A stretch of 64,000 nucleotides of DNA from Candidatus Saccharimonadales bacterium (GTDB lineage Bacteria; Patescibacteriota; Saccharimonadia; Saccharimonadales; 2-12-FULL-41-12), in contig JAYRJB010000002.1 in the NCBI GenBank assembly GCA_041906505.1, forward strand, positions 2,363 through 66,362, in the 5' to 3' direction. Shown in pieces: positions 3,084-55,758 of the stretch. Within the stretch, counting starts at the first letter, position 1. Each line of letters starts with the position of its first letter. Both the position numbers and the translations under genes were made by a program. The notes under the pieces are model-generated. The model did not search any database and was not told where the DNA came from. It worked only from the letters and a program-made list of their open reading frames with translations.

Positions 3084-3117
3084 TTATACTTCGACAAAAA
3101 ATTAAATCCGAACAAAT

Positions 3118-9705: not shown

Positions 9706-10345
9706 AAAAAGGCTGATATTGGCATTGGCGATGCTAGTTGTGGCTACTTTTGTGTTTGTTGGTGCACGGAGCTATCAAAATTCATTCGGTATTCTTCGCG
9801 TGTCCTCAGATGATAGTTTTGAGCTTCGTTTGTTTGTGCTTGACAAGACTGGGCAAAGAAAAGAATCAAGCAGTGAAGTTGTTCGTACCATTAGTTCTTC
9901 TGGAAACTATAAACTAAAAAAGGGGGAATACTCCTACAAAATAAGTGGCGGCCCCGAATATGAGCCTCAAGAAGGACAGCTAACACTTGATGGGGCTGAA
10001 GATATAAAAGTTGAACTTTCCCTTACCTCACAGCGATTAGCAGAAATCAAAGAGAAGGAGCAGAGCAAGGTGGTTGCTGTGCTGAACCAAAAGTACCCCA
10101 CACAAATGAGAGATTATGTGTTTAGCGAGGGTCGTGTATTTGGACGAGGAGATTGGTATTTTGGTGTGCTTGCTCCAAAAGCACTGGAAAAGCAGGACGC
10201 CCTGGTTGTAGTTCTTCAAAACAAAAATGGTTCCTGGGAAGTTGTGACCGACCCCCCAAACATAGTGATAAGCAAATCTGTTTATCCAAATATTCCCGAG
10301 GAAGTATTTGGCTACATTTCGAGTCGCTTTACTGGAGAGGAATGA
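9698..10345 (+). CDS. Membrane-anchored hypothetical protein
   Basis: The ORF is open from 9662. I prefer the GTG at 9698 because GGGAG lies 6 nt upstream, giving VNKKRLILALAMLVVATFVFVGA. Last gene of the operon; it overlaps the recF 3' end by 17 nt. Confidence 0.5.
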   Translation: MNKKRLILALAMLVVATFVFVGARSYQNSFGILRVSSDDSFELRLFVLDKTGQRKESSSEVVRTISSSGNYKLKKGEYSYKISGGPEYEPQEGQLTLDGAEDIKVELSLTSQRLAEIKEKEQSKVVAVLNQKYPTQMRDYVFSEGRVFGRGDWYFGVLAPKALEKQDALVVVLQNKNGSWEVVTDPPNIVISKSVYPNIPEEVFGYISSRFTGEE

Positions 10346-11390
10346 TCTTTGTTTGTTGTGTGAAGCTTTTGACCACCACGTCGGCGTCGGTAGTAGTAAT
10401 AAGTGTTTGGTAGCGACTTAGGTGCTCGGTGAGGGCGCGCCGCCGCGCGCCGTCTAGCTCGCTAAAAACGTCATCGAGGAGGAGAAGCGGCCTTTTGGAG
10501 GTGTATTTTTCTAGAAGCTCCAACTCGATCACTTTGAGTGCAAGTAGTATTGTTCTTACTTCGCCGCGTGACGCATGATTTACTGCCAGGTTTTCACCAA
10601 AATAGACCAACACATCATCTCTGTGCGGGCCGCTACCCGTAAACCCTCGAGCAAAATCAATTTCTTGAGTCTTTTGGAGTTGCTTTAGGAGGCTTGTTTC
10701 GTAGTTCTCTATTGGGCTGTTTGTGTAATATTCCAGCCGAATATCCCTTTTTTGGCCAGCAATCTTGTTGTAAGTGCGAGCAATTTCTTGGTTTAGTGCC
10801 GCAACAAACCCGGTGCGTTTTGCAACAATCTGAGACGCTGTCTCGCATAATTTAAGGTCCCAAACAAAAACTTGCTCTTTTGCGGACTCACCTTTTTTTA
10901 GGAGTGCGTTTCTTTGAGCCACAATTCGGCGATATTTTGTGAGCAATCCTTCGTATCCGTCTTCGTATTTTGCTATAACCCGGTCAATATACTCTCTTCT
11001 TTTATTTGGTTCCGTGAGCAATAAAAACAGGTCATTCGGCTCAAACAACACGGTTGGGTGCTTTTGGGATTGGGGTAGTTTTTTGTAAGTTTTGTCATCA
11101 ACTTGATAGGTTTTTTGTGTCTTTTCGTTGCCCGCTGTTTGCAGTTTTACGGTTCTGGTTTGGTTTGTGTCAGTATGTGTGTCGATTCTTGCCCACTTTT
11201 TACCATACATAGTAAGCGCGTCGTCTTTTGCGCGGTAGGAGGGGCTTCCAGCGGAGAGCATTAATGCCTCTAGCAGATTTGTTTTGCCGGCAGCATTTGG
11301 GCCGACAACAATATTAACACCTTCACCCAAATCAAATGATGCGTCCTCATATGATCGGTATTGCTGCACCCGAATATCTGTAAAAATCAT
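10329..11390 (-). CDS. recF: DNA replication and repair protein RecF
   Basis: 353 aa. Starts MIFTDIRVQQYRSY, has Walker A GPNAAGKTNLLEA and a C-terminal LLLLDDVFSELD. Located downstream of dnaN. Confidence 0.9.
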   Translation of the reverse strand: MIFTDIRVQQYRSYEDASFDLGEGVNIVVGPNAAGKTNLLEALMLSAGSPSYRAKDDALTMYGKKWARIDTHTDTNQTRTVKLQTAGNEKTQKTYQVDDKTYKKLPQSQKHPTVLFEPNDLFLLLTEPNKRREYIDRVIAKYEDGYEGLLTKYRRIVAQRNALLKKGESAKEQVFVWDLKLCETASQIVAKRTGFVAALNQEIARTYNKIAGQKRDIRLEYYTNSPIENYETSLLKQLQKTQEIDFARGFTGSGPHRDDVLVYFGENLAVNHASRGEVRTILLALKVIELELLEKYTSKRPLLLLDDVFSELDGARRRALTEHLSRYQTLITTTDADVVVKSFTQQTKIIPLQ

Positions 11391-11414
11391 CTACTGGTAT
11401 TATGCCACGCTCGC

Positions 11415-12506
11415 CTAGCTCTTAAGAGGCATGATAATGTGTGTGTAGTCGGGGTTTTTTGTGCCTTTAATCACGCAGGGCTCTAGTTTGCCATTGAAAG
11501 ATATCGAGACCTCGTTGTCACCGATAACACTGAGTGCGTCCAAAATATATCTTGAGTTAAGAGTAATTACCCCCTCTCCCGAGATTTGCGCATCGGCCGT
11601 TGCAGTGTTTTCGCCGAGTTGTGATGCGACCGCACGTATCCCAATTTGATTTTTTGCGGGGTCCACCTCTAGCGTCACACTGCCAGCACTTTCTCTCGCA
11701 AACAGACTCGATACTTTTGTAATGTTTGCGAGCTCCGCGCGTGGTAGGGTAGCGCTTACCCCGAATTTTGTAGGGATTAGTTTTTTGTAGTCTGGGTATT
11801 TTCCATCAATTAGTCTTGTGACCAACTCAACATCACCCACCTTAAACAACACCTGTTGGTCATCGTGCGTTACCTCTACCTCTTCTTCGTTGTCGCCAAT
11901 AATTCGAAGCAGGTCTTGTAGGGCGGTTGCGGGGATAAGCAGACTTATGTCGTTTTTAAGCGCCGCCACTTTTTTCTCTGCGAGCCGATAACTATCTGTT
12001 GCTACTAAAAATAGGTTTCCTTGGGTGGTGTGTAAAAAAACTGCAGTAAGTACCGGTCTTGCCTCATCACCGCTGGCAGCCACCACCACCTGTTGAATTG
12101 CTTTTTTTAACTTAGATGAGGCTATTTTCCATTTATCCCCGTTATTTATTTTAGGCATAACAGGGTATTCGTCGGGTGGGGTGCCGTTTATTGTGGAGTC
12201 ATATTTTTCGGTTTTTATGTGTAGTTTTGTATCTTCAACCACAACATCAATTACCCCGCTCGGGAGGCTTGCGACAAAGTCTTGCATCAGTCTTGCTGGT
12301 ACAGTTATCGAGCCCTCTTCTTTTACTTTTGACCCAATGTAGTTTGTGATGGCAATATTTAGGTTTGTTGCGGCGACACACACTCTATTGTCTGATGTTT
12401 TGATGAGCACGTTCGAAAGAATTGGTAACGCGTTTCTTCCCGAAGCAACTCTAGCAACATTACTAAGTGCGCGGTTTAGGTTTTCTTGGGTAACTTGTAA
12501 CTTCAC
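11415..12506 (-). CDS. dnaN: DNA polymerase III beta sliding clamp
   Basis: 363 aa. The N-terminus MKLQVTQENLNRALSNVARVA and the overall pattern are typical of DnaN. Synteny is dnaA-dnaN-recF. Confidence 0.92.
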   Translation of the reverse strand: MKLQVTQENLNRALSNVARVASGRNALPILSNVLIKTSDNRVCVAATNLNIAITNYIGSKVKEEGSITVPARLMQDFVASLPSGVIDVVVEDTKLHIKTEKYDSTINGTPPDEYPVMPKINNGDKWKIASSKLKKAIQQVVVAASGDEARPVLTAVFLHTTQGNLFLVATDSYRLAEKKVAALKNDISLLIPATALQDLLRIIGDNEEEVEVTHDDQQVLFKVGDVELVTRLIDGKYPDYKKLIPTKFGVSATLPRAELANITKVSSLFARESAGSVTLEVDPAKNQIGIRAVASQLGENTATADAQISGEGVITLNSRYILDALSVIGDNEVSISFNGKLEPCVIKGTKNPDYTHIIMPLKS

Positions 12507-12771
12507 TTCATATCCCTTCTATATAACTAATAATGTTTTATTTAAAAGAGTAGGTTTAGTAGAAAGGGTTGGGGAAAAGGTGGAAAAAGAAGAAGTGAAA
12601 GAAGAGAAACGTTGTTTTTGGTTGGGTAAAATTAAGTGCACTACCTGTGTGTAAAAAAGCAAAAACAGACACCTTACCCACAACAAACTACTAACAAAAT
12701 AAAAATCAGTGAAAAACCCAAACTTTCTCCACACCTTCTTCTGGCAACTATCCCCAGGAACAACACAATCA
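12507..12771. promoter_or_regulatory. dnaA-dnaN intergenic region with DnaA-box-like 9-mers and an AT-rich tract (possible second oriC module or DUE)
   Basis: TTACCCACA at 12674-12682 and TTCTCCACA at 12725-12733 each have 1 mismatch to TTATCCACA. GGTGGAAAA lies at 12579-12587. An AT-rich stretch (ctatataactaataatgttttatttaaaag) lies around 12517-12548. Confidence 0.4.
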
Positions 12772-14148
12772 CTACACATACAACCGCTCCTTAATATCCG
12801 CAATCGCCATCCGCACCTCTTGGTCAAAAGCCTTTTCTTTCTCGATTTTTTCTACAGAATGAATAGCGGTGGTGTGGTCTTTGCGACCAAGCTCACGTGC
12901 AATTTTAGGGAAACTTAGGTGCAGCTCACTTCTTAGGATATACATAGCAATTTGTCTTGGTACAACAATTTCTTTGTCGCGTTTTGGCCCTAAAATTTCC
13001 TCCATGGAGAGATGAAAGTGTTTTGCGGTTTTTTCTATTACTTGGCGCGCGTTGAGATGTTTGGGGCGGGATTTTGAGTTTCCAAGCAGCGCCGAGGCAA
13101 CCTCGACAGTTGGTTCTAGGCCACGCATTTCACAAAACGCCAACAATTGATTAAGCGCCCCCTCAAGTTCGCGAATATTGTTTTGGACATAGCCCGCCAA
13201 ATGCTCAACAACATCATGTGATAAACGAACTCGATGTACGTGCGCCTTTGCTTGAATAATTGCGCATCTTGTCTCAAAGTCTGGAGCCTGCATATCAATT
13301 GCCATACCCCACTCAAATCGCGATCGAAGGCGATCGGTAAGGGTGGGGATGTCTTTGGGTCGACTATCGCTCGTGATAATAATTTGCTTATTGGCTTGGT
13401 GCAGGGCGTTGAAAGTGTGAAAGAACTCTTCTTGGGTTTTTTCCTTTCCAGCAATAAACTGGATATCGTCGACAATTAATAGGTCGGCGCTCCTATAAAA
13501 CCCCGCAAAATCAGTGTTCTTTTTATACCTAATTGCGTCAAGAAACTCTTGTACAAACTGCTCAGTCGAGACGTACACAACATGAGCGCCTTTCCTGTTT
13601 TCTACCACCATGTTGCCTACCGCTTGAATAAGGTGTGTTTTGCCGATCCCCACGCCACCGTATAAAAACAGAGGGTTGTACTTGGTTCCTGGATTGTTGG
13701 CGATTGCTTGGCACGCGGCGTGTGCCAGCTCGTTGCCAGAGCCCACAATAAATGTTTCAAAGGTGTATTTCTCGTTTAAACCCTGCCGGTACGAGTGTGC
13801 GAGGCTACTGGTTGTATTGTTGGGTTTTTCGCTTTCCTCAGACGGGGAAGGGCTAGAGCGCAAAATTATTGTTTCGTCTTCAACCTTTCTGTGCAAAGAC
13901 GAGGCTGGAAGGATTTTGTACTCTAGTTCAACGGCTTCCACCCCGTTATTTTTTAGGGTTTGAGCCACAAGATCGCTAAATTTCCGTTCGAGCTGCTGTT
14001 TTACGAAAACGTTCGGCGCTCCCACAACTACGTGATTGCCGTCAATTTTTAACAAGCGCGTGTTTTTGAACCATGTCACATAATTGCCGTGTGACACTCC
14101 TAGCTCAATCTCTCCAAGTACTGCTTGCCAAAGGCTTGCTGTATCCAT
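12772..14148 (-). CDS. dnaA: Chromosomal replication initiator protein DnaA
   Basis: Start moved to the ATG at 14148 (MDTASLWQAVLGEIE...). Walker A GGVGIGKTHL, IVDDIQF, and a C-terminal DNA-binding helix region (HTTAIHSVEKIE). The upstream ORF extension covers the DnaA-box region and looks non-coding. Confidence 0.92.
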   Translation of the reverse strand: MDTASLWQAVLGEIELGVSHGNYVTWFKNTRLLKIDGNHVVVGAPNVFVKQQLERKFSDLVAQTLKNNGVEAVELEYKILPASSLHRKVEDETIILRSSPSPSEESEKPNNTTSSLAHSYRQGLNEKYTFETFIVGSGNELAHAACQAIANNPGTKYNPLFLYGGVGIGKTHLIQAVGNMVVENRKGAHVVYVSTEQFVQEFLDAIRYKKNTDFAGFYRSADLLIVDDIQFIAGKEKTQEEFFHTFNALHQANKQIIITSDSRPKDIPTLTDRLRSRFEWGMAIDMQAPDFETRCAIIQAKAHVHRVRLSHDVVEHLAGYVQNNIRELEGALNQLLAFCEMRGLEPTVEVASALLGNSKSRPKHLNARQVIEKTAKHFHLSMEEILGPKRDKEIVVPRQIAMYILRSELHLSFPKIARELGRKDHTTAIHSVEKIEKEKAFDQEVRMAIADIKERLYV

Positions 14149-14466
14149 GTAGTCTTTTGTCTTCCCCTTATGTTTTGAGCACACGTTTTGCTCGTTTCGG
14201 ATACGTCCAACTATAACAAAAAAATCGTAGTTTTCCACAGCCAAGTACAAATTCACTACAAAATTCATCAAAACTCGCCCGAACAGATAGATACTTATAC
14301 ACACAAAGGCAGCACATCTGTTAATGTGTGGAAAAAAGTTGGTGCAAGGTGGAAAACTTGCTAAGATATGGGGGACTAATATTGTTAATTTAACGTAGAT
14401 TCAGCCAAATCTGCGCGGTTTGACGACCGCGACACAAGTGCCCTATAGTCTATAGAGAGAATATTC
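14149..14466. promoter_or_regulatory. Candidate oriC (dnaA-rpmH intergenic region with a DnaA-box cluster)
   Basis: TTTTCCACA at 14231-14239, TTATACACA at 14295-14303, TGTGGAAAA at 14327-14335 (reverse complement of TTTTCCACA), and GGTGGAAAA at 14348-14356. The flanking gene sets are transcribed divergently away from this gap. Confidence 0.6.
14420..14449 (+). promoter_or_regulatory. Putative sigma70-type promoter of rpmH-rnpA
   Basis: TTGACG (14420-14425), an 18-nt spacer, then TATAGT (14444-14449). The rpmH ATG is at 14467. Confidence 0.4.
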
Positions 14467-14604
14467 ATGCCAAAACGAACTCATCAACCCAAAACCAGAA
14501 AACGCTCCAAAGTCCACGGGTTTTTAAAGCGTATGTCGACTAAACCTGGTCGAAACGTTCTTCGACGCCGCCGAAACAAGGGACGCAAAGCCATCTCTGC
14601 ATAA
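14467..14604 (+). CDS. rpmH: 50S ribosomal protein L34
   Basis: Not in the ORF track because it is under 60 aa. My translation is [45 protein letters not shown], a canonical L34 sequence, and it sits upstream of rnpA. Confidence 0.9.
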
Positions 14605-14651
14605 AATCACAAAGCTAGTTACTTTTTTGTAATTCCTATAACCTAAATAAT

Positions 14652-15011
14652 ATGATCGCGCGCGCTTTTCGGTTTCACGGCTATAACTCGTTGCGTCACG
14701 TATACAAAACCGGATCTGTTCAGCGCACCGAACTGATGTCACTTCGGCATTCACCGTCAAAAAAAGCCAACTATCGACTCGCGGTAGTTGTGAGCAAGAA
14801 GGTTAGCAAAAAAGCAGTGGTGCGCAATCGAATCCGCCGGCGAATTTATGAAGCAATAAGACGTCTGCACAACGAAACGGGCCAAAACTGGTCCCAAGAC
14901 ATGGTGCTGACAGTGTTTGACGAAAAAGTGGCAACCGTTACAGCAGCCAAACTGCAAGAAGCGATAGAAAAACTTCTACAAAAAGCCGACATACTATCCC
15001 GCTCACGCTAG
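14652..15011 (+). CDS. rnpA: Ribonuclease P protein component
   Basis: 119 aa, basic. Contains the RNR-type motif VVRNRIRRRIYEA. Synteny is rpmH-rnpA-yidC. Confidence 0.85.
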   Translation: MIARAFRFHGYNSLRHVYKTGSVQRTELMSLRHSPSKKANYRLAVVVSKKVSKKAVVRNRIRRRIYEAIRRLHNETGQNWSQDMVLTVFDEKVATVTAAKLQEAIEKLLQKADILSRSR

Positions 15012-15135
15012 TGCCAGCCACCAGTGACGTGTTAGGCTATATACATAACACCAACACGCAAGCGCCGAGCATACTTCGGGGCGAGGGGAGCGCAATTGTG
15101 CTTTCATTACGGTGGTCGTGTGAGAAGGAGAGTTT

Positions 15136-16056
15136 ATGTTTCAAACCTATGTCGAACAACCAGTTTTTAATCTCTTAGTGTCCATTTATGCACTAGTGCC
15201 TGGGTATGACTTAGGGTTGGCAATAATCCTGTTCACGATTGCGATCCGATTGGCACTATGGCCCTTGGTTCGCAAGCAACTTCATCATGCCCGAGCGATG
15301 CGTAAGCTCCAGCCAGAGTTAAAAAAGATTAAGAAAGCTGCCAAGGGGGATCGACAAAAAGAGGCTCGCCTCCAAATGGAGCTATATAAAGAGCACGAAA
15401 TACGGCCATTTGCCACTATCGGTACTCTCATTGTGCAGATTCCAATCTTTATTGCTCTCTATCAATCAGTGCTCAAGCTTATTAACAATTCCGACACACT
15501 GTACTCGTTTACTTATAGTTGGGTAAAAAACCTTCCTCATATTCAAGATTTGGCCAATGGAGTTGCACAGTTTGATCCCTATTTTTTGGGTCTTGTTGAC
15601 TTGACCAAGTACGGTTTTCAAAGAGGCGGTGGAATTTATTTTGGAGCGCTCGTGCTTGCTGCCATCGCTGGGTTTACACAGTACAAACAAAGCAAATTAA
15701 TGCTGCACGACCAAAAAGATGCTCGAAAACTATCGGTAATTCTCAAGGAGGCCTCATCTGGTAAGCAAACTGACCAAACTGAGATCGCGGGGGCCGTTGG
15801 GCGGGGTATGGTGTACTTTTTGCCGTTTATTACCTTCATTTTTGCCATGAATGTGCCTTCGGCCTTGTCGCTGTACCTCATCACCAGCTCGGGGGTTGGC
15901 TACCTGCAGCAATGGTTGGTGCTTCGCCAAGACCAAGAGGAGCTTCAAGAAATTGCTGACGAGCCGACCGAAGAAGAAACGAAAGTCGTGAAGCCGAAAA
16001 AACCAAAAAGCAAAGCCAAAAAATCTTCTCAATCGAAAAAGAGGAGGAAAAAATAA
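15136..16056 (+). CDS. yidC: Membrane protein insertase YidC (short Gram-positive/Oxa1-like type) with a Lys-rich C-terminal tail
   Basis: 306 aa and multi-TM. The segment RKLQPELKKIKKAAKGDRQKEARLQMELYKEH is typical of YidC. A strong SD (GAAGGAGAG) precedes the ATG. The tail reads KPKKPKSKAKKSSQSKKRRKK. Confidence 0.85.
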   Translation: MFQTYVEQPVFNLLVSIYALVPGYDLGLAIILFTIAIRLALWPLVRKQLHHARAMRKLQPELKKIKKAAKGDRQKEARLQMELYKEHEIRPFATIGTLIVQIPIFIALYQSVLKLINNSDTLYSFTYSWVKNLPHIQDLANGVAQFDPYFLGLVDLTKYGFQRGGGIYFGALVLAAIAGFTQYKQSKLMLHDQKDARKLSVILKEASSGKQTDQTEIAGAVGRGMVYFLPFITFIFAMNVPSALSLYLITSSGVGYLQQWLVLRQDQEELQEIADEPTEEETKVVKPKKPKSKAKKSSQSKKRRKK

Positions 16057-16550
16057 TGAGCACAAACGACAAAGGCATCGAAGCTTCAATTCTATTTGCC
16101 AAGAAGTACCTCGAAGACCTACTATCATTTTTTGGCCTCAATACAGACGTTCGGGCATCAAACAGCGAAGACGAGGTCATAGAACTCCACGTGCCCTCAA
16201 CGCACCTTAATGGCTTCTTGATCGGCCAAAGGGGCGAAACCATGCACGCCTTGCAGTTCTTGGTTGGTAGCGCTTTAAAAAGCTCTGAATACGAAATAAC
16301 GAGGGTAAATGTCGACGTTGCTGAATATAAAAAGCAACGTGCCGAACGTCTCGCCCAAAAAGCCCAAGAATGGATTAAGCAAGTCAAAGACTCGAACGAA
16401 AAGCTCGAACTAGAGCCAATGAATGCCGCAGACCGCAGAACCGTTCACAAAGTTGCTGGCGAACATGGTATAGAAACAGAATCTGTTGGAGAGGGACGAG
16501 ACCGCCACATTGTTCTAAAGCCTGCCGAAGACTCATCAGAAAAAGACTAG
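16056..16550 (+). CDS. jag: Jag/KhpB-like RNA-binding protein (KH plus R3H domains)
   Basis: 164 aa. The R3H region is MNAADRRTVHKVAGEHGIETESVGEGRDRHIVL. TAATG overlap with yidC. Conserved yidC-jag synteny. Confidence 0.8.
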   Translation: MSTNDKGIEASILFAKKYLEDLLSFFGLNTDVRASNSEDEVIELHVPSTHLNGFLIGQRGETMHALQFLVGSALKSSEYEITRVNVDVAEYKKQRAERLAQKAQEWIKQVKDSNEKLELEPMNAADRRTVHKVAGEHGIETESVGEGRDRHIVLKPAEDSSEKD

Positions 16551-16618
16551 ACACCAGAATTTCGTGTTATTGAAGTAGTAGGCTATACTTTGCCCACAAC
16601 TACAACGAGGCACGCCTT

Positions 16619-19600
16619 ATGCGCAGACTGTTTTTGAGAACGGCAGCCATTACGATTATTGCAATTGTGGGGTGTTTCGTTTTTCATACATCACAGACCA
16701 AAATATCAGCCGAAACCGCGACCTGGACCACTGGAGCCATGCCAACATTAGCGGTCGGCCCAGCCGTATCTGGTCCTCTGCCCCCGCAATGCTCACCAAC
16801 AGACATCACCTATCAATCATTTACAACTACGGCAGGCGCTTTTTCTGCTGTCCCAAGAGATGTAGCCGTTTCGATGTGCTCGACATCAAATTTTATTGCT
16901 GACTACGCCTCTCCGAGTGCTGGAGTCACAAGCTATGGCTACATAAAACCGAAAACCAACTACGCCTACAGAGTCGTAGACGAGCTCGAACGCCCAACAG
17001 GACTTCTGCCAATTCCCAACAGCGGAAGAGCAATTTTTACTCAATCAGACGGCAATGTGAATGGCGGAAGATCTCTTCGTATTCTTTCCAACTTTGCGAG
17101 CACCGGAACGTTTGGTCCAGTGTATGGCTCTCTCAACGAAATGGCCTACAAACTAACAAATCCAGGGCAGCCGCTTAAAGATGGCGCGGGAAATATTATT
17201 CATATGATGGACGGATATGCTTTTTCTGCCAACGGACGGTGGATGATTATTGAAGCTGATAACATCGGGCTTCTCAGAATAGACACCGAAACGAAGCAAA
17301 TGCAGCTCATTAGCACAGAATATTACACATACGGAGGCGGGTTCCGTCCAGTGCTTACGCTGGCAATTAGCGACGACGGCGAAAGTGCGATTCGCAGCGG
17401 AGTTAGCCTCAATAACACAACCGTTTTCGATCTTTCAAACTGCCAAACTACCCCGTTTATTAAAGGATCAAGCACCAATCAAGCCACGGGTTGTGTAAAA
17501 AGGAATGTTCAAGATAACATCGTTGCCCAATTTAGTGGTTTTCGAGCGATGTATGGAATGAAATATAGCGCCGATGGCAAGAATGTAAGTGGCAGAATCC
17601 AACGAACAGGTGCTCTTGGGGTTATTGAGAATTTTTCGATGACATACTCGGTTGCGGGTTATCAAGTTCCACAAACAAGTTATCTTGCGCTGGGAGACAG
17701 CTTTAGTAGCGGGGAAGGGGCATATGATTATGAATCTGAAACAGACCAAAAAACTCCCCCCAACTTCTGTCACACCAGCAAGAATAGCTACCCATATCTC
17801 GCCGCAGCCTCATTGGGTATAACAAATTTTCACAGCGTGGCGTGTAGCGGAGCAAAAAGTACAAACTATCATGAGAAAAGCCAGGCAACCAGTTTACTGT
17901 CTGAAGAAGACTTTACTAAAAGTTGGACACCAGGCATCAAGCCACAGGCGGAGTATTTGAAAAGAGTTAGAGCCAGCGACGCAATAACTATTTCTATGAT
18001 CGGTAACGATATAGGGTTCGGCAACAAGCTAAGAAGATGTATTTTGGCGTCGGACGCCTGCTTTCATTTTCGAGAAGACAGAGAAGCGATCGCGAAAGAA
18101 ATCAACTTGAAGTTTGACAGCCTCGTTAATATGTACGTAGACATAAAAACACAAGCAAGCTCTGCAAAAGTTTATGTGTTGGGCTACCCAAATCTTTTTA
18201 GCGAGGCGGAGGCCTGCGAACCGAATGCGTTGACGGAGTATGAGGAGCGGATTTTTTCCAGGGCAATGGTGCGCTACCTAAACACAACCATAAAGTCAGC
18301 TACCGAAAAAGCTGGTGTGCAATATATTGATGTCGAGCAGGCTTTTACTGGACAGCAACTGTGCGACCCGGGCCGGCAAAAAGCAGTCAACGGCTTTACT
18401 TGGGGTGACAGTGGGCCCATAACAATCGGCCCCTACAGTGGCCCGGTTGGAAACGAAAGCTATCATCCGAACAAGCTCGGACAACAGCTTTTTTCACAGG
18501 CACTCCTTGCACAATCGCAGAGTTTTACAAAACAAATGCCCACGCCAAACTCGTCGGCAAAACCACCAACTATCACATCCACCGCATACACCAATTTGGT
18601 CGATGGAGCACCCAGCGGAAACACAATAAATAGGGGCATTTATTCCGAGCTCGAAGGGCTTGAGGTGTTGATAAAGAACAAGACTACCCCAATTCGACAG
18701 ACCGAAAAAGCGCTAAAAGCTAACAGTGTATATGAGGTTTGGATTAACTCAACCCCAATCAAACTAGGAGATGTCAACACAAATTCCTCCGGTGAACTCG
18801 CGGGAGAAATAGCAGTGCCGCAGAACATTTCTCCGGGGTTTCACACACTTCATGTGTATGGACAAGATATTGCCGGCGAAAACATTGATCTATACAAAAC
18901 TCTGTATGTTGCCGAAACACAAGAAGACATCGATGGTGACGGCGCTCCAAATAATCAAGAGAAGTGTTTGGTAGTTGAGCCAATCAATATCGACGTAGAT
19001 AGGGACGGCAGAGATGATGCTTGTGACGCAGAAATCAGTGACCCGCCAGCGGATAGCACGCCTCCGCAAGTAAGCGGCGCGCTCAACACACAGCCAAATG
19101 CTTTGGGTTGGCTTAATGCTTCAACTACGATTAGTTGGTCGTCTATTGATCCCGAGCCGAGCAGTGGAATACCCACTCAACCCACAAGCACTGAAGTAAA
19201 CAACGAAGGAGAATATGTTGTGACGAGCGATCCAAGCTGTGACCCTCTGAATAACTGTGCAACCGGCAGCATGAATGTAAAGCTTGACAGCACTGCCCCC
19301 ACCCTTGGCACTCCAGAGTGGACCCAGAACCCAAAAAGCATAACTGGCTCAACCAAGATTTCGATACCGGTTTTAGACTTATATTCCGGGGTAAGCTCGG
19401 CGGAATACTTTATTGGTGATAATGATCCAGGATTGGGCAATGGTGCAACAATGCAAATTGATCCTGACCACGCAAGCACTGAGTTTGGGAGCGACTTCCC
19501 AAGTGGTGTATTTAGGATCACCGTGCGAGCAAAAGATTTTGCGGGAAACTGGAGCGAGAATGTCAGCGATTTTCTAGTTGTATATGGGCCCAAAGACTCG

Positions 19601-20083
19601 CGAATTAGCGGCAGACGAGCAGTTATTCCGTCTACTGCACTCGGGGACCGACTTCCAGGGCTCGTAACCGAACTGCAACAAAATAAATTGCGATTTGGTT
19701 TGCACGTTATGTACAACAAACAAAATCAGATTCATCCAAACAGCAACTTCTTTATTAGTTATAAAACTGGCACAAAATGTGCAAATCTTCAAAAAGCCCA
19801 AAATTGTCACACCACATACCTGGACTCTCAAGAAATCAACTGGCTTGCATTTCAATCCACCACAGGCATATTTGAGGGCAAGGCCATGCTGAGTGTGGAC
19901 GGCATACAGACACCCGTGAAGTACAGGGTGCATGCCACAGATGCACAGAAAAATTTTGGAAGCGGCAAAGACAGGATAAAAATCGAAATTTTTGACGAAC
20001 ACGCCAACAGCAATGTTGACCAGGTCATATACCAAGTCAATGCTGAGCTCGCAAAAGGTGATATAGTTATCAAGACGAAGTAA
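16619..20083 (+). CDS. Large secreted SGNH/GDSL hydrolase-domain protein with thrombospondin-type-3-like Ca-binding repeats
   Basis: 1154 aa with an N-terminal signal/anchor (AAITIIAIVGCFVF). GDSL block I is YLALGDSFSSGEGAY. D-rich repeats DIDGDGAPNNQEKC and DVDRDGRDDACD. The remainder is beta-rich. Confidence 0.65.
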   Translation: MRRLFLRTAAITIIAIVGCFVFHTSQTKISAETATWTTGAMPTLAVGPAVSGPLPPQCSPTDITYQSFTTTAGAFSAVPRDVAVSMCSTSNFIADYASPSAGVTSYGYIKPKTNYAYRVVDELERPTGLLPIPNSGRAIFTQSDGNVNGGRSLRILSNFASTGTFGPVYGSLNEMAYKLTNPGQPLKDGAGNIIHMMDGYAFSANGRWMIIEADNIGLLRIDTETKQMQLISTEYYTYGGGFRPVLTLAISDDGESAIRSGVSLNNTTVFDLSNCQTTPFIKGSSTNQATGCVKRNVQDNIVAQFSGFRAMYGMKYSADGKNVSGRIQRTGALGVIENFSMTYSVAGYQVPQTSYLALGDSFSSGEGAYDYESETDQKTPPNFCHTSKNSYPYLAAASLGITNFHSVACSGAKSTNYHEKSQATSLLSEEDFTKSWTPGIKPQAEYLKRVRASDAITISMIGNDIGFGNKLRRCILASDACFHFREDREAIAKEINLKFDSLVNMYVDIKTQASSAKVYVLGYPNLFSEAEACEPNALTEYEERIFSRAMVRYLNTTIKSATEKAGVQYIDVEQAFTGQQLCDPGRQKAVNGFTWGDSGPITIGPYSGPVGNESYHPNKLGQQLFSQALLAQSQSFTKQMPTPNSSAKPPTITSTAYTNLVDGAPSGNTINRGIYSELEGLEVLIKNKTTPIRQTEKALKANSVYEVWINSTPIKLGDVNTNSSGELAGEIAVPQNISPGFHTLHVYGQDIAGENIDLYKTLYVAETQEDIDGDGAPNNQEKCLVVEPINIDVDRDGRDDACDAEISDPPADSTPPQVSGALNTQPNALGWLNASTTISWSSIDPEPSSGIPTQPTSTEVNNEGEYVVTSDPSCDPLNNCATGSMNVKLDSTAPTLGTPEWTQNPKSITGSTKISIPVLDLYSGVSSAEYFIGDNDPGLGNGATMQIDPDHASTEFGSDFPSGVFRITVRAKDFAGNWSENVSDFLVVYGPKDSRISGRRAVIPSTALGDRLPGLVTELQQNKLRFGLHVMYNKQNQIHPNSNFFISYKTGTKCANLQKAQNCHTTYLDSQEINWLAFQSTTGIFEGKAMLSVDGIQTPVKYRVHATDAQKNFGSGKDRIKIEIFDEHANSNVDQVIYQVNAELAKGDIVIKTK

Positions 20084-20098
20084 AGGGGGTGGATTAGT

Positions 20099-20689
20099 AT
20101 GGTGCGCAAGAACGCTCTCAAGAAAAAACCAAAACAAAAAACAAGAAAACCAACATTATTCTCAAAAAAAGCAACTGCAATAGTGCTGTTAGGCATTGTG
20201 CTCACAACAACTACACTGTTGGCATATTCAAGGTATGCTCAACACCAAGATGCAGAAAAATTTCAACAAGCACAGGGCCAAAAAACACAAGTGTTCAGCG
20301 CAATAGTTGATAGTCTTGGGGATGTTTACAAAAAAGAAGAAAAGAATGTTTGTTTTCAGTCTGAACAAGGACCCTACGATAACGGAAAGTTATGGTGCCA
20401 AGTGTCCTCCGCAGCATACTTTAAGCGACCAATATCAGAATCAGAAATAAAAGATATCTACGAAAAAACTGTTAGACAAGATCCAATGAATCAGAAATAT
20501 TTTCAATTGAGTACTTTTCAAGAAAAGGCTCAGAAAAATCAAAAGAAAATCTGCGGCATGGAAACTTGGAGTGGCGAGGATGCTTCAACAACGCCGTATT
20601 TTTTTTCAGACATTGACAGTTCAAAAACAACAATAATCATCAAATGTGCGGATAGGGCAAAAGCGAAACACTACCCCTTTGTTGATTAG
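20099..20689 (+). CDS. Membrane-anchored hypothetical protein
   Basis: 196 aa. A basic N-terminus is followed by a TM segment (AIVLLGIVLTTTTLLAY). No recognisable motifs. Confidence 0.45.
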   Translation: MVRKNALKKKPKQKTRKPTLFSKKATAIVLLGIVLTTTTLLAYSRYAQHQDAEKFQQAQGQKTQVFSAIVDSLGDVYKKEEKNVCFQSEQGPYDNGKLWCQVSSAAYFKRPISESEIKDIYEKTVRQDPMNQKYFQLSTFQEKAQKNQKKICGMETWSGEDASTTPYFFSDIDSSKTTIIIKCADRAKAKHYPFVD

Positions 20690-20719: not shown

Positions 20720-20753
20720 GTGACAAAAATACGCGATCGCGCAAAATAGTATC
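20720..20753 (+). repeat. 34-bp dyad repeat, copy 1 (GTGAC-N7-CGCGATCGCG-N7-GTATC), abutting the start codon of the PaaX-like gene
   Basis: Reads GTGACaaaaataCGCGATCGCGcaaaataGTATC and ends 1 nt before ATG 20754. Confidence 0.8.
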
Positions 20754-21311
20754 ATGACTAAAGAAGTAAATACATCAAAAATATTGGATTCGATACTAAA
20801 CTTGTTTGTTGGTAGTGGGGTTGTAGTAACGACTATTGTTGCACCAAACGCAATTCAAGCGCTGGACAAACCACTAAACGGCTATTTTAGAGCTATGAAT
20901 GGTCGGGCTAGAGAAAGAGAGCTTAAAAAACACGTACGTTATCTAAGGACAAGAGGCTATCTAAAAGAATATGCTCACGGACTGCAGTTGACAGAAAAAG
21001 GAAGGACGCGCTTACAAAGAGCCGAGATTGAAGACCTAAAAATCACTCAACCCAAAAAGTGGGATCACAAGTGGAGAATTGTCTTGTTTGATATCCCCGA
21101 AGCCAAGAAAACGGGCAGGGATGGACTAACCAGAAAGCTGAAGGAAATCGGCTTTTTTACTCTACAAAAAAGCGTTTGGCTGCACCCGTTTCCGTGTCGC
21201 GAAGAGATTGAGCAAGTCGCCTCTTATTACGAGATAGATCGGTACGTGACCTTTATCGAAACAAACTATATAGACAAACAAGACTTGTTGATAAAACAAT
21301 TCAAAGTATAA
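20754..21311 (+). CDS. PaaX-like transcriptional regulator (Cas2-like fold C-terminal domain)
   Basis: 185 aa. KKWDHKWRIVLFDIPEAKKTGRDGLTRKLKEIGFFTLQKSVWLHPFP matches the PaaX-family core pattern (W..W..V.F.IPE..R..R..L...GF..L...VW..P). Confidence 0.65.
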   Translation: MTKEVNTSKILDSILNLFVGSGVVVTTIVAPNAIQALDKPLNGYFRAMNGRARERELKKHVRYLRTRGYLKEYAHGLQLTEKGRTRLQRAEIEDLKITQPKKWDHKWRIVLFDIPEAKKTGRDGLTRKLKEIGFFTLQKSVWLHPFPCREEIEQVASYYEIDRYVTFIETNYIDKQDLLIKQFKV

Positions 21312-21315
21312 AAAC

Positions 21316-21349
21316 GTTACTTATTTACGCGATCGCGTATTATTGTCAC
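21316..21349 (-). repeat. 34-bp dyad repeat, copy 2 (inverted relative to copy 1)
   Basis: The reverse complement reads GTGACaataataCGCGATCGCGtaaataaGTAAC. It lies between the convergent stops of the PaaX-like gene and the GT4 gene. Confidence 0.8.
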
Positions 21350-21362
21350 ACATTTCAAGGAG

Positions 21363-22484
21363 TTAACTTTTTGTTTTGAGGAGCGAGGTGTAAATATCGA
21401 GGGTTTCGTGAGCCGTCTTTTCCCAGGAATAATGCCGAAGTTGGTCAAACCCCTTGTTTTTCAGAGAACTTCTTAGGTCAGCAGACTCAAGTACCTCCCC
21501 AATTTTCTTTGCCATGTCTTGAGCATCTAAGGGATCAAAAAACAGGGCAGCGTCTCCATAAATCTCGGGCAGACACGTTGCGCTACTGCTCACAAGAGGA
21601 CAGCCATGCGCCATCGCCTCTAGCCCAGGCAGGCCGAAGCCTTCACTCAAAGAAGGAAGAACATAGCCTTCAGCATTTTCATAAAGCCATCGAAGCTGCG
21701 TGTCGGGAACAAATCCGGCATATATGGTCGCTCGATAAGAAGACCGTTGTTTGTGCCAATCTTCTAGCTGTTCAAAATAATATTCTTTTTTTCCTGCAAG
21801 CACCAAGAGCAACTTTGAGTTAGTTTGCCGAAGCACCTCGAACGCTTCTATGAGGCGCTGTATGTTTTTGTGCGGAAAAGGGCTGCCAACATGGAAAATA
21901 AACGGTTTCTCAACACCTGGCACGGCTTGAGAGGTTTCGTGTATTGGTGGCTCGCTGGCTTCGTAGGTTACAGCAATTTTTTGCTGAATTGATGGCTGAT
22001 AGTTCGACAGGTCATCTTTCACAAATTGTGAAGGCACAATAATGGCTTTGGACTTACGGTGTGCGTGTCGAAAAAGCAGCCGATAGGCGAGTCGCTTAAT
22101 CCAAAAAACAGGCAGAAATGTACCTTTTCTGCGCACAAAACGAAGCATTGTGAGGTCGTGGGTGGTGGTTACGATGTTGCCAAAATAAAATAATGGTTGT
22201 TGTGTCATTGTAAAGTGGACAAGGCCAGGTCTCAATCTGTAAAGTAGCAACGAGAACCCAATTTGCTCGAGCGGATTTAGAGAAAACTGCTTATATCGAC
22301 ACATATTGGTAGAAAAATTTTTGGCGGATGGCTGCCAGGGGTCATCTCTCTCAAGAAGCACCGTATAACGATTGTCGGAGTCGATTTTTTGTAAATGCTC
22401 GAGAAGGCGATCCGCATAACGCCCCGTGCTGGCACGACGGATGCGCGCATCAATAACGATATGTCTAGAAGGTAAGTCGCTCAT
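21363..22484 (-). CDS. Glycosyltransferase family 4
   Basis: 373 aa. Contains the GT-B/GT4 signature EGFGLPGLEAMAHGCPLVSS. Confidence 0.8.
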   Translation of the reverse strand: MSDLPSRHIVIDARIRRASTGRYADRLLEHLQKIDSDNRYTVLLERDDPWQPSAKNFSTNMCRYKQFSLNPLEQIGFSLLLYRLRPGLVHFTMTQQPLFYFGNIVTTTHDLTMLRFVRRKGTFLPVFWIKRLAYRLLFRHAHRKSKAIIVPSQFVKDDLSNYQPSIQQKIAVTYEASEPPIHETSQAVPGVEKPFIFHVGSPFPHKNIQRLIEAFEVLRQTNSKLLLVLAGKKEYYFEQLEDWHKQRSSYRATIYAGFVPDTQLRWLYENAEGYVLPSLSEGFGLPGLEAMAHGCPLVSSSATCLPEIYGDAALFFDPLDAQDMAKKIGEVLESADLRSSLKNKGFDQLRHYSWEKTAHETLDIYTSLLKTKS

Positions 22485-22508
22485 ACTACTGGTACAATTG
22501 TACTAACA

Positions 22509-23807
22509 ATGCAGACAGTTCAGAAATATCTTGTGTACGCAGCACTGGCACTGTTTATTTATATGCCGTTTCATATATTTTTGGCGCTTTGGCTCAGCAC
22601 GTTCACAGGCGGGTTGGATGCGTGGAAGATAGCGAAAGATGTACTTACTGCTGCACTTACCGTAGCTAGTGTTGCGCTAGTTTTTGGCACGCGAAAGCAC
22701 ACGAGGTTATACGTGTGGCTAGTGGGACTCACGGCGCTCTATGGGCTTCATCACTTGGGAATTATGTTTTTTACTGATCAGCCTCTGGACACTGGCCTGC
22801 TTGCAACAACCTACAACGTTCGTTTGTTTTGTTTTCTTTTGATTGGCTACAGCGCGGCGCTGCTTGTACCAAGACAATTCAACACTCGATTGCTCGCGCG
22901 AGTATTGATCATAGCTAGCACAACTGTTTGCTTAATTGGCATAGCGCAGTACGTACTGCCGAAAGATATAATGACGCACTTTGGCTACAGCCTTGAGAGA
23001 GGGGTAAAACCCATGTTCTTTATCGATGACAAGCCCGATTTGCCACGAATAATGTCCACGATTCGCGACCCTAACTCACTTGGAGCGTTTCTGATCCTAC
23101 CGATCACGATATTGGCCCAAGCATTGGTGCGCAGTTGGAAAACCCAGCGGCGAATGCTGCTTGCAGGCCTTTTGTTGCTTCATGTCTGGGCACTGTTTTT
23201 GACATTTTCAAGGAGTGCCCTAGGGGCGACTGTCTTGTCGCTTGGCGTAGCTTTTGCGCTTGGCTACCAAAAGCAGATCCGCGCTTTTGGCAAAAGATAC
23301 AGCTACCTAATTGTCGCAGGAGTCGTGATTTTATTTGTCGGGGCGTTTGCGCTTAGGGATCAATATTTTGTTCAGAATGTAATCTTTCACGCAGACGAAT
23401 CAACCCAGCTTGATGACCCGCAAGAGCTTCGTGTCTCGCTGGTTCAGCGGGGAATTGATGGCATCGTAGACAAGCCTCTTGGGAATGGACCTGGGACGGC
23501 TGGGCTAGTGTCAGTTCACAACGAAAACGGTGGGTTATTGCCAGAAAATTACTTTGTGCAGGTCGGATATGAGGTGGGGGTATTTGGGCTGATGCTATTT
23601 CTGGCACTGCTTGGCTACGTGCTCTGGCAGTTGTGGCAGAGGAGGCAAGACCAGATTGTGCAGGCACTAATTGCGAGCTTTGTAGGATTGTTTTTGATGA
23701 ATTTGGTGCTCATGACCTGGGCGAACGAAGCCGTGGCTTGCGCTTGGTTTATGCTTGCTGGAGCAGCTCTCGTTTTGAAAATAAACAAACAAAAAAGTTC
23801 AAAATAA
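22509..23807 (+). CDS. O-antigen ligase/polymerase-like (Wzy_C family) polytopic membrane protein
   Basis: 432 aa with about 10-12 TM segments. A periplasmic-loop region with ...FSRSALGATV... is typical of the O-antigen ligase family. Confidence 0.6.
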   Translation: MQTVQKYLVYAALALFIYMPFHIFLALWLSTFTGGLDAWKIAKDVLTAALTVASVALVFGTRKHTRLYVWLVGLTALYGLHHLGIMFFTDQPLDTGLLATTYNVRLFCFLLIGYSAALLVPRQFNTRLLARVLIIASTTVCLIGIAQYVLPKDIMTHFGYSLERGVKPMFFIDDKPDLPRIMSTIRDPNSLGAFLILPITILAQALVRSWKTQRRMLLAGLLLLHVWALFLTFSRSALGATVLSLGVAFALGYQKQIRAFGKRYSYLIVAGVVILFVGAFALRDQYFVQNVIFHADESTQLDDPQELRVSLVQRGIDGIVDKPLGNGPGTAGLVSVHNENGGLLPENYFVQVGYEVGVFGLMLFLALLGYVLWQLWQRRQDQIVQALIASFVGLFLMNLVLMTWANEAVACAWFMLAGAALVLKINKQKSSK

Positions 23808-23810
23808 AGT

Positions 23811-23844
23811 GTGACAAAAATACGCGATCGCGTAAAAAAGTAAC
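23811..23844 (+). repeat. 34-bp dyad repeat, copy 3
   Basis: Reads GTGACaaaaataCGCGATCGCGtaaaaaaGTAAC. It lies between the convergent stops at 23807 and 23865. Confidence 0.8.
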
Positions 23845-23864: not shown

Positions 23865-24830
23865 CTATATTTTAGGGATTTTTGGCGGGCGGTTTTTGTA
23901 GAGGATGGAGTCGATGTGTTTTGTGCTAACTTTTCGGGATTTTTGGATTTGGTGCCTATCTTTTAAAACTGCTGGAAGGTGGAGAATGAAATAGCTGAGC
24001 CCTCTTAAATATGCCCATATGCCGCCGCGGAGGAGGCTTGTGCCGCACATACGAAACATCGTGTAGGCGAAAAGCGGGAGGTACTTCCAAAATAACCAAC
24101 CAGGCATATTTTTTACGTAAAGCATGAAGAGATTTTTTACCGAATGGTATCGCGTGAATGATCCCAATTTGGAGCTTGTGGATCCGATACGATGATAGGC
24201 GATCGCCTTGGGCTGGTACCATACTTTCCAGCCAGCTAGTTGCGCACGGAACGATATGTCCACATCTTCGAAATAGGCGAAGAAGCTCTCGTCGAATGGG
24301 CCGATTTCTTTCAGCAGCTCTGTTCTATATAGACTTGCTCCACCAGAAGCGCCGAAGACTTCTTCGCTTGCATCGTACTGGTCGGCATCTTCTTGGTTTC
24401 GGCCTCTCGGGAAGGCGATCCCATATCTCGAGTAAAAGTCCCCCGTGCTGTCGATGTATTTCTTGTCACTTCGGAGCAGTTTGCCGGTAACTATTCCTAG
24501 TTCTGGATTCCCTTTGATTGATTCGACGAGGTTCTTTAACCAATCTTTGTCGGCAACGGCGTCGTTGTTGAAGAGTGCCACAGCATCAGCGCCGTTCCCC
24601 ATTGCGTATCGAATACCAACATTTACACCTCCTGCAAAGCCAAGATTTGTGGGATTTTCAAGCAAAGTGACGCCAGGAAACTGACCATTGACAAGCTCGG
24701 CGGAATTATCAGTCGACGCATTATCTACTACAACAACAGAGGTGCTATACGACTGCATTTCGATTGATTTGAGACTCTCGCCAAGCCACTCTGCCCCGTT
24801 CCAGTTGGGTATGACAACAAAGACCTTCAT
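23865..24830 (-). CDS. Glycosyltransferase family 2 (WbbL-like rhamnosyltransferase type)
   Basis: 321 aa. MKVFVVIPNWNGAEWLGESLKSIEMQSYSTSVVVVDNASTDNS, NLGFAGGVN and LFNNDAV are typical of the GT2 rhamnosyltransferase subgroup. Confidence 0.7.
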   Translation of the reverse strand: MKVFVVIPNWNGAEWLGESLKSIEMQSYSTSVVVVDNASTDNSAELVNGQFPGVTLLENPTNLGFAGGVNVGIRYAMGNGADAVALFNNDAVADKDWLKNLVESIKGNPELGIVTGKLLRSDKKYIDSTGDFYSRYGIAFPRGRNQEDADQYDASEEVFGASGGASLYRTELLKEIGPFDESFFAYFEDVDISFRAQLAGWKVWYQPKAIAYHRIGSTSSKLGSFTRYHSVKNLFMLYVKNMPGWLFWKYLPLFAYTMFRMCGTSLLRGGIWAYLRGLSYFILHLPAVLKDRHQIQKSRKVSTKHIDSILYKNRPPKIPKI

Positions 24831-55597: not shown

Positions 55598-55758
55598 ATC
55601 TATAAAATTTGAATAAACGGTAGCAAATAGCTGACGATCGTCACAAAAGTGCTACGGTTTTGGGCAATGGTGGCGATGCCCGAAGGGGGCGCTAGGGATG
55701 GTGTAGATTTTACGGCTTACACCCCACAGCTAGCGTGATATAGTGAAAACAAATTAAA

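Follow-up and report, generated by a model that had tools for sequence, protein, structure and literature searches.

Introduction

PaaX of Escherichia coli and Pseudomonas consists of three domains, namely a winged helix at the N-terminus, a Cas2-like domain in the centre and a helical C-terminal domain that has been reported to bind phenylacetyl-CoA. In the lambda CI, 186 CI, lac and deo systems, a gene or a block of genes is flanked on either side by sites for one and the same repressor. The C proteins of restriction-modification systems are small dimeric autoregulators, with palindromic C-boxes overlapping the promoter of a leaderless transcript, and repetitive extragenic palindromic (REP) elements flank the genes of REP-associated tyrosine transposases (RAYTs). 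The half-sites bound by E. coli PaaX are inverted and far apart, TGATTC-N27-GAATCA, and the protein sterically hinders RNA polymerase at its own promoter, which is thereby repressed (PMC9493321). Here, we describe a 34-bp element that is present in three copies around the gene of a PaaX-like protein of 185 residues (hereafter the regulator) in a 64-kb stretch of DNA (hereafter the window) from a Candidatus Saccharimonadales bacterium. Two of the copies enclose the regulator gene, and such a bracket recurs around the homologous genes of Saccharimonadales and other Patescibacteria.

The regulator shares with PaaX the N-terminal winged helix and the central Cas2-like domain. In contrast, it has 185 residues and no C-terminal domain, compared with 305 residues in the PaaX chain of the structure 8a39, the elements described here have an additional palindrome, GC-rich, at their centre, and the gene is followed by a second site. 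Patescibacteria, also known as the Candidate Phyla Radiation (CPR), have tiny genomes and few recognisable regulators. In the literature that we covered, which was incomplete, no work was found that links PaaX-like proteins to Saccharibacteria or Patescibacteria or that describes such bracketing.

Results

Three elements around the regulator gene

The pattern GTGAC-N7-CGCGATCGCG-N7-GTAWC is found three times in the window, at 20720, at 21316 (inverted) and at 23811, all inside 3.1 kb. Copy 1 (20720–20753, plus strand, GTGACAAAAATACGCGATCGCGCAAAATAGTATC) overlaps the promoter of the regulator gene (20754–21311, plus strand), whose product is the presumed element binder. Copy 2 (21316–21349, minus strand, GTGACAATAATACGCGATCGCGTAAATAAGTAAC) is located 4 nt past the regulator stop codon, with the end of a convergent GT4 gene 13 nt away, and copy 3 (23811–23844, plus strand, GTGACAAAAATACGCGATCGCGTAAAAAAGTAAC) is located 3 nt past the stop codon of a Wzy_C gene and 20 nt from the end of a convergent GT2 gene. 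Copies 1 and 2 are thus inverted relative to each other, and copies 1 and 3 are direct repeats. The core CGCGATCGCG was expected 0.03 times in the window and occurs three times, and the full pattern had no match in 100 shuffles. No fourth copy with nine or fewer mismatches to the consensus was observed among all the 34-mers of the window, and a repeat search recovered the same family of three copies, with spacings of 596 and 2495 bp. The octamer GCGATCGC occurs six times in the 64 kb, three of them within the elements.

These coordinates and sequences agree exactly with a preliminary description of the window, as do the gene assignments (185-residue PaaX_M protein, GT4, Wzy_C and GT2). One detail has to be corrected: copy 1, which had been placed one nucleotide before the ATG of the regulator, ends at 20753 and abuts this codon, which starts at 20754. 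The term dyad, also used there, is appropriate for the 10-bp core, which is a perfect palindrome, and for the outer pentamers (GTGAC and GTAAC), which are nearly inverted. However, one and the same strand is A-rich in both of the 7-nt spacers around the core, and this is mirror symmetry and not dyad symmetry, so the symmetry of the whole element is partial. In copy 3, the dyad extends outward to AAAGTGTGAC...GTAACACTTT.

Conservation of the bracket in the protein family

A metagenome scan with the alignment of the protein gave 80 more loci (all loci are numbered with the prefix L). For comparison, 79 homologous loci from Saccharimonadales and other Patescibacteria, with 31–79% protein identity, had enough flanking sequence. 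For each of them, the best-matching pair of 16-mers was sought between the 110 nt upstream and the 125 nt downstream of the gene. This pair has at most two mismatches in 70 of the 79 loci, and at most one mismatch in 59. In the controls, a pair with at most two mismatches was present in 3 of 329 windows of the same loci and in 14 of 400 cross-locus pairs. The family element is a dyad of 30–45 bp with AT-rich arms and a GC-rich core, present on both sides of the gene coding for the winged helix-turn-helix and Cas2-like (PaaX_M) protein. Cores and arms vary among lineages and match between the two copies of a locus; the cores across the family include CGCGATCGCG, CGCTATAGCG, GACGGCCGTC, ACCGATCGGT, AACAGGTGTT, GCGATAGC and ACGCAGGTGCGT. 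The contig L086 exhibits two regulator paralogs, each with a private 36-bp palindrome. Where the core is asymmetric, the upstream and downstream copies are in direct orientation in L006, L014 and L037, and in inverted orientation in the window, L013 and L016.

The bracket is tight, with the upstream copy 0–3 nt before the ATG in Saccharimonadales-type loci and the downstream copy about 0–115 nt past the stop codon in the family. Beyond the closest clade, synteny is lost and the neighbours are genes such as ychF, glyS, gap, ndk and lepA, judged by the N-terminal sequences of the open reading frames (ORFs). As the neighbours are not conserved, the bracket belongs to the regulator cassette. That the downstream copy serves the following gene, as its promoter or operator, was considered and rejected, because this gene is convergent in 39 loci and co-directional in 26.

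Extra copies of a locus's own element were observed in 9 of 75 loci (623 kb scanned), most of them as tandem copies just upstream. The dispersed extras comprise copy 3 of the window, one site in L057, two sites flanking mreB-proS in L051, one of which (position 5010) lies at a convergent junction, and, in L086, a pair of variants around a NYN-domain gene. In the relatives, such extras tend to occur as pairs flanking genes (L051, L086 and L057). With three copies in 64 kb and so few extras, the motif does not behave as a high-copy REP-like element without a link to PaaX-like genes, an outcome that the preliminary description had envisaged.

Some of these extras exhibit further features. In L086, the NYN-domain gene (2796–3308, minus strand) is located between direct repeats of about 100 bp (2560–2660 and 3355–3455), composed of a GC-rich terminator-like hairpin, CCCCGACTTCGGTCGGGG, and a variant of the palindrome of the neighbouring regulator, with the core CGACCG for CGATCG. 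In L057 (9946, 10580 and 12219), the repeated unit is longer than the palindrome and takes in the start of the coding sequence (ATG/GTG GAA CAA), so the extras may stem from duplication of the 5' end of the gene. Directly past the downstream element, three unrelated loci exhibit tandem 8-mers, namely seven units of GGGCGTTT, three of GGTGCGAA and three of GGTTATTA (L037, at about 10620–10690; L021 and L023).

Scanning 185,579 species genomes, a set outside which the genome of the window falls, with ACAANNNNNCGCGATCGCGNAAANNNGTA returned only two sites in one other Patescibacteria metagenome-assembled genome (MAG122) and one cyanobacterial chance match. In intergenic DNA of MAG122, a perfect palindrome of 30 bp, TACAAATTTGCGCGATCGCGCAAATTTGTA, is present two times or more (L008, 1824–1853; L010, 4387–4416), with no PaaX-like gene within the 7–8 kb examined around each. 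One of the MAG122 palindromes is located 17 nt upstream of the start of a 354-residue ORF, and behind this ORF comes a gene for a long membrane protein with multiple passes that resembles O-antigen ligase. The DNA pattern had no match in viral contigs, where a single relative of the regulator protein was found; the cassette is therefore not typical of phages. The window itself contains, at 55615–55660, a 46-bp dyad, AAACGGTAGCA-AATAGC-TGACGATCGTCA-CAAAAG-TGCTACGGTTT, 17 nt past the stop codon of bacA/uppP and without an adjoining PaaX-like gene. It exhibits the layout of the studied elements (arms, spacer and a GC-rich core centred on CGATCG), with a core like those of L015 and L022, and may be a plain terminator, its right arm ending in a U-run.

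Evolution of the copies in the closest relatives

The arrangement of the elements is identical in the window and in two independent assemblies of the same species (L001 and L002). In L003 and L004, whose regulators are 79% and 72% identical to that of the window, copy 1 abuts the ATG and copy 2 is located directly past the stop codon; the intergenic DNA around the elements has diverged, and both flanking copies are kept. Orthologous copies (window, L003 and L004) differ at 2–4 positions, compared with five between the two copies within one genome. The within-genome differences include AT versus TA at positions 27–28, which is conserved across species, and the A-rich asymmetry of the spacers is also kept in L003 and L004. 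As paralogous copies differ more than orthologous ones, the copies have evolved separately since before the species split, each of them being kept. This pattern of substitutions argues for purifying selection acting on each copy on its own, with no homogenisation, and would speak against gene conversion or recombination between copies. The short Logan contigs L003 and L004 both start exactly at base 2 of copy 1 (TGACAAAATT...), which would fit a branch in the assembly graph, caused either by a further identical copy of the element elsewhere or by upstream strain variation.

At 52–55% protein identity (L005–L007), elements are present at both positions, with altered arms and with the cores CGCTATAGCG, CGCTATCGCG and GCGATCGC. 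Synteny of the glycan genes with the window was found in these three loci only. No counterpart of copy 3 was found at the syntenic loci L005 and L007, because the Wzy and GT2 genes overlap there. The glycan link and copy 3 are thus specific to the lineage of the window. A functional tie between the elements and the glycan genes, as suggested previously, is consistent with the closest clade, but elsewhere the bracketed regulator stands beside unrelated housekeeping genes. Glycan-gene synteny was accordingly rejected as an explanation of the bracket, being limited to L005–L007.

Promoter geometry

Copy 1 contains a -35-like hexamer, GTGACA (20720–20725), a 16-nt spacer holding the CGCGATCGCG core (20732–20741), and a -10-like hexamer, CAAAAT (20742–20747), with 9 of 12 matches in a promoter scan. 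The ATG of the regulator, at 20754, follows 7 nt after this -10-like hexamer. The same geometry is kept in L003 and L004, with a better -10 hexamer (TAAAAT). Among the 17 Saccharimonadales-type loci, the centre of the upstream dyad is located 15–20 nt before the ATG in 16, and a TAnnnT hexamer is present 6–9 nt before the ATG in 15. The automatic finder misplaced the dyad centre of the upstream copy in L019 and of the downstream copies in L018, L019 and L020, for which we relied on alignments. In L011, the upstream copy differs by a single C-to-A change from the perfectly palindromic downstream copy, which converts GTCTAAT to GTATAAT and creates a TATAAT hexamer.

With the -10 hexamer so near the ATG, there is no room for a ribosome-binding site, which implies a leaderless or nearly leaderless mRNA. 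The promoter overlapping copy 1 and the nearly leaderless transcript predicted in the preliminary description are in line with this register, which is conserved across species. In the window as a whole, 30 of 50 long ORFs exhibit no Shine-Dalgarno-like motif in a crude motif test, and a TATAAT-like hexamer is located about 8–17 nt before the start of several genes (e.g. 61482, 24892, 52312–53736 and 57220–58953), so leaderless or short-leader mRNAs seem to be common in this genome.

The regulator protein

The regulator matches the Pfam family PF20803 (PaaX_M) over residues 101–177 (E = 4.4e-25). Its AlphaFold2 model has a pLDDT (predicted local distance difference test) score of 79 overall and above 90 in the C-terminal PaaX_M domain. 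In the model, the N-terminus is helical and precedes a winged helix, with a helix, β-hairpin and helix at residues 50–93, and a ferredoxin-like domain. The top match of a Foldseek search against the PDB is E. coli PaaX (8a39, 198 alignment columns), followed by Rv0674, Cas2 and VapD. At the sequence level, the winged helix is supported by weak matches to CggR_N and TubR, and a single-protein sequence search of the PDB with the regulator returned only noise. The protein stops at residue 185 and has no Pfam match to the C-terminal domain of PaaX, and its score for the PaaX equivalog model TIGR02277 of NCBIfam is 39.5 bits, against a cutoff of 264.55. The regulator is therefore PaaX-like in fold and not an orthologue of PaaX.

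Four residues, Asp113, Arg122, Gln138 and Ser140, are invariant among the homologs of the regulator and align with the signature residues of Cas2. A hydrophobic segment at the N-terminus was considered as a possible membrane anchor, but the weak match to TubR spans residues 8–91, including this segment, and argues against it; the model has low confidence at residues 20–33.

Genomic context

The names under which homologs of the window are recorded assign the organism to Saccharimonadales, a group of the Patescibacteria. The replication-origin gene set, with recF, dnaN and dnaA, is located at 10329–14304 and is followed by yidC and a KH/R3H gene. Next come the genes of a 1154-residue GDSL-domain protein and of a 196-residue protein without a family match, then copy 1, the regulator gene and copy 2. 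The regulator gene is about 6.5 kb from dnaA/dnaN, beside the likely origin region. Past copy 2, the order is GT4 (21363–22484, minus strand), Wzy_C (22509–23807, plus strand), copy 3, GT2 (23865–24830, minus strand), which codes for a glycosyltransferase and converges on copy 3, genes of an ABC-2 protein and an ABC ATPase, and more glycan genes. No phenylacetate (paa) gene is present among the window genes examined (GDSL, GT4, Wzy_C, GT2, ABC transporter genes, dnaA and dnaN). The divergent GT4/Wzy_C pair enclosed by copies 2 and 3 (21363–23807) is a candidate for a regulated or insulated unit, which the elements might control.

The 24-bp gap between GT4 and Wzy_C (22485–22508) contains a perfect palindrome, GTACAATTGTAC, at 22492–22503, which reads TACAAT on either strand. 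These hexamers stand 10 nt and 12 nt from the start codons of the two genes, with no Shine-Dalgarno motif, and the palindrome looks like a shared -10 region of two back-to-back promoters with very short leaders. The GDSL gene and the gene of about 200 codons are on the strand of the regulator in the window (10329–20689) and on the opposite strand in L007 (1–9888), the GDSL gene being opposite in L006 as well, which indicates a local inversion between lineages. Further away, four tandem repeats with a period of 159 nt (33985–34631; 62–84% identity to the reference copy) within a minus-strand ORF (33945–35600) suggest a repeat-domain protein.

Discussion

The elements as probable cognate operators

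Based on these observations, we propose, with a probability of roughly 0.7, that the three elements are cognate operators of the winged-helix and Cas2-like regulator, copy 1 forming an autorepressed promoter and copies 2 and 3 acting as auxiliary sites. The sites are present as described, they are paired with the gene throughout the family and covary with it by lineage, and the upstream site has the geometry of a promoter. From these features we infer that the protein binds the sites, represses its gene, and loops or blocks the intervening DNA. Copy 1 would be the gene's own promoter, with the GC-rich palindrome in the spacer between the -35 and -10 hexamers and the transcription start at or beside the ATG. 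Protein bound there would exclude RNA polymerase and so hold its own level constant. Copy 2, at the gene's 3' end, would serve as a second operator, and the two-site bracket is the conserved unit of the protein family. As the second site is kept in about 90% of the lineages whatever gene is downstream, it must serve the cassette itself. This service is probably cooperative binding of two dimers that loops the gene of about 600 bp, a roadblock against transcription entering or leaving the cassette, or both. Copy 3 would be a lineage-specific extra operator which, together with copy 2, brackets the divergent GT4/Wzy pair at a second convergent junction, and these two copies would bring the first glycan genes under the same kind of looping or roadblock. 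Operators of the PaaX-like dimer, giving autoregulation combined with roadblocks, were among the explanations offered in the preliminary description. This explanation, with its predicted binding, gains from the covariation of site and regulator across about 75 lineages and from the position of the upstream site on a conserved promoter that leaves little or no leader.

The comparison with described repressors is in line with this proposal. The outer arms of the element, GTGAC-N24-GTAAC, resemble the half-sites of PaaX in layout. PaaX operators are likewise widely spaced inverted half-sites, and occlusion of its own promoter, a feature of PaaX (PMC9493321), would apply here as well. In lambda CI with OL and OR, in coliphage 186 CI with its flanking sites, in lac with O1 and O2 and in the deo operators, one repressor also has sites flanking a gene or block. 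By analogy with them, the retention of two matched sites would be explained by looping with cooperative binding. In contrast to these systems, the bracket described here tightly encloses the coding sequence of the regulator itself, throughout a family and in unrelated contexts, and looping is here a prediction. The C proteins provide another analogy, as small dimeric autoregulators with palindromes on a leaderless promoter and a specificity that diversifies fast. They differ in having an Xre-type helix-turn-helix in place of a winged helix and a Cas2-like domain, no restriction-modification system adjoins the regulator gene, and nothing equivalent to a C-box follows the gene of a C protein. 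Cyanobacterial HIP1 (GCGATCGC) is the same octamer as that found inside the element core. However, HIP1 occurs genome-wide at very high density, compared with six occurrences in 64 kb here, and the cores of other lineages are unrelated to it.

Several points weigh against the operator interpretation. The role of copies 2 and 3 is one that we infer, and 34 bp is long for a site bound by one dimer. The distance of both copies to the promoter region of GT4/Wzy exceeds 1.1 kb, too far for simple occlusion there. As the regulator has no equivalent of the ligand-binding C-terminal domain of PaaX, there is no evident signal to which it would respond. Almost no sites were found away from the gene itself in the 623 kb of relatives, and a classical regulator with such a regulon would be unusual. 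The invariant Cas2-signature residues Asp113, Arg122, Gln138 and Ser140 leave room for an enzymatic role. Finally, a second promoter-like site, TTGACA-16-AATCAT, at 20613–20640, could yield a transcript with a leader.

Alternative explanations

A broader interpretation, to which we give clearly less credence, is that the gene and its two matched palindromes form a self-contained cassette of a new kind kept across Patescibacteria, in which the protein would be more than a self-repressor. It could act as a sequence-specific insulator or roadblock terminator that separates transcription units in genomes poor in other terminators, or as a Cas2-type nuclease that maintains and occasionally seeds its own palindromes, a functional parallel to RAYTs and REP elements. 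The DNA specificity of such a cassette would diversify fast, giving every lineage and every paralog a site of its own.

It is improbable, though compatible with part of the data, that the elements are cis signals independent of any protein, copy 1 being a plain promoter and copies 2 and 3 intrinsic terminators, with a hairpin and a U-run, at convergent gene ends. The T-rich strand of each copy does exhibit a minimal terminator pattern, UACGCGAUCGCGUA followed by a U-run, and this strand agrees with that of the regulator gene at copy 2 and of the GT2 gene at copy 3; at copy 1, it faces no gene and is left unexplained. Many of the other lineages have as their element a perfect palindrome of 30–36 bp, which would form a long RNA hairpin, whereas the mirror-symmetric spacers of the window clade allow no long hairpin and the element is nonetheless conserved. 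Copy 3 with its flanks folds better than shuffled sequences (z = -3.1), but copies 1 and 2 do not (z = -0.5 and -0.9). Moreover, such signals give no account of why, in 70 of 79 loci, promoter and terminator would have a lineage-specific sequence in common.

The main unconventional possibility, which we consider about equally improbable, is a system like that of REP elements and RAYTs, in which the Cas2-like domain would be an active nuclease that recognises the flanking palindromes and occasionally spreads or maintains them. Copy 3 would then be a dispersed copy and not a regulatory site. The two systems have in common a single-copy gene, short flanking palindromes specific to the lineage and the paralog, and occasional intergenic copies elsewhere, including at convergent junctions (copy 3 and position 5010 of L051). 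The presence in MAG122 of two perfect 30-bp palindromes with the same core and no adjoining PaaX-like gene, as well as the alignment of the four invariant residues with the Cas2 signature, could also be accommodated. However, the Pfam and fold searches point to PaaX and Cas2 and to no HUH/Y1 tyrosine transposase. REP elements reach hundreds of copies per genome, whereas there are few per region here, with one extra in 64 kb and, in the relatives, extras that are mostly adjacent tandems. In addition, the upstream copy is built into a promoter in a fixed register, and the orthologous copies evolve independently of each other.

Still more doubtful is the possibility, raised in the preliminary description, that copies 2 and 3 are promoters of antisense RNAs directed into the regulator gene and the GT2 gene. 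The arrangement GTGACA-16-TAAAWW is present on the A-rich strand of all copies, and this asymmetry is kept in L003 and L004. Nevertheless, the hexamers of copy 2 (TAAATA) and copy 3 (TAAAAA) are devoid of the T at -7 that copy 1 exhibits (CAAAAT, or TAAAAT in L003 and L004), the -10 hexamer is gone from the downstream copy elsewhere (e.g. TCTAAT in L011 and CAGAAT in L012), and the promoter scan flagged neither copy 2 nor copy 3 on the A-rich strand. As a general feature, antisense promoters are thus not supported, copies 2 and 3 and most downstream copies of the relatives being without the -7 T or the -11 A of a -10 box. Lastly, site-specific recombination leading to glycan phase variation, another suggestion of the preliminary description, with copies 1 and 2 inverting the regulator gene and copies 1 and 3 deleting the 3.1-kb segment, would fit the inverted and direct orientations and a dyad-with-core layout like that of recombinase sites, but is very improbable given that no recombinase domain was recognised among the adjacent genes tested, that the three available assemblies of the species (window, L001 and L002) all exhibit the same arrangement, that the orientation of asymmetric cores differs among lineages, that the copies are not homogenised, and that an inverted gene would receive an equivalent promoter and hence not be switched.

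Significance

If the elements are cognate operators, one part of the system is ordinary, namely an autoregulated repressor with an operator in its own promoter. The new part is a tight and fast-diversifying pair of sites, kept family-wide around a winged-helix and Cas2-like gene in CPR bacteria. It offers a protein and a DNA site as a concrete couple, with about 75 natural specificity variants on hand for study, and matched site pairs could become orthogonal repressor-operator parts. If the second site loops or roadblocks, it would illustrate a means of insulating gene units where genomes are very compact and many transcripts are leaderless or have short leaders. If this is true in the lineage of the window, the mechanism would be tied to surface-glycan genes and may matter for the epibiotic lifestyle.

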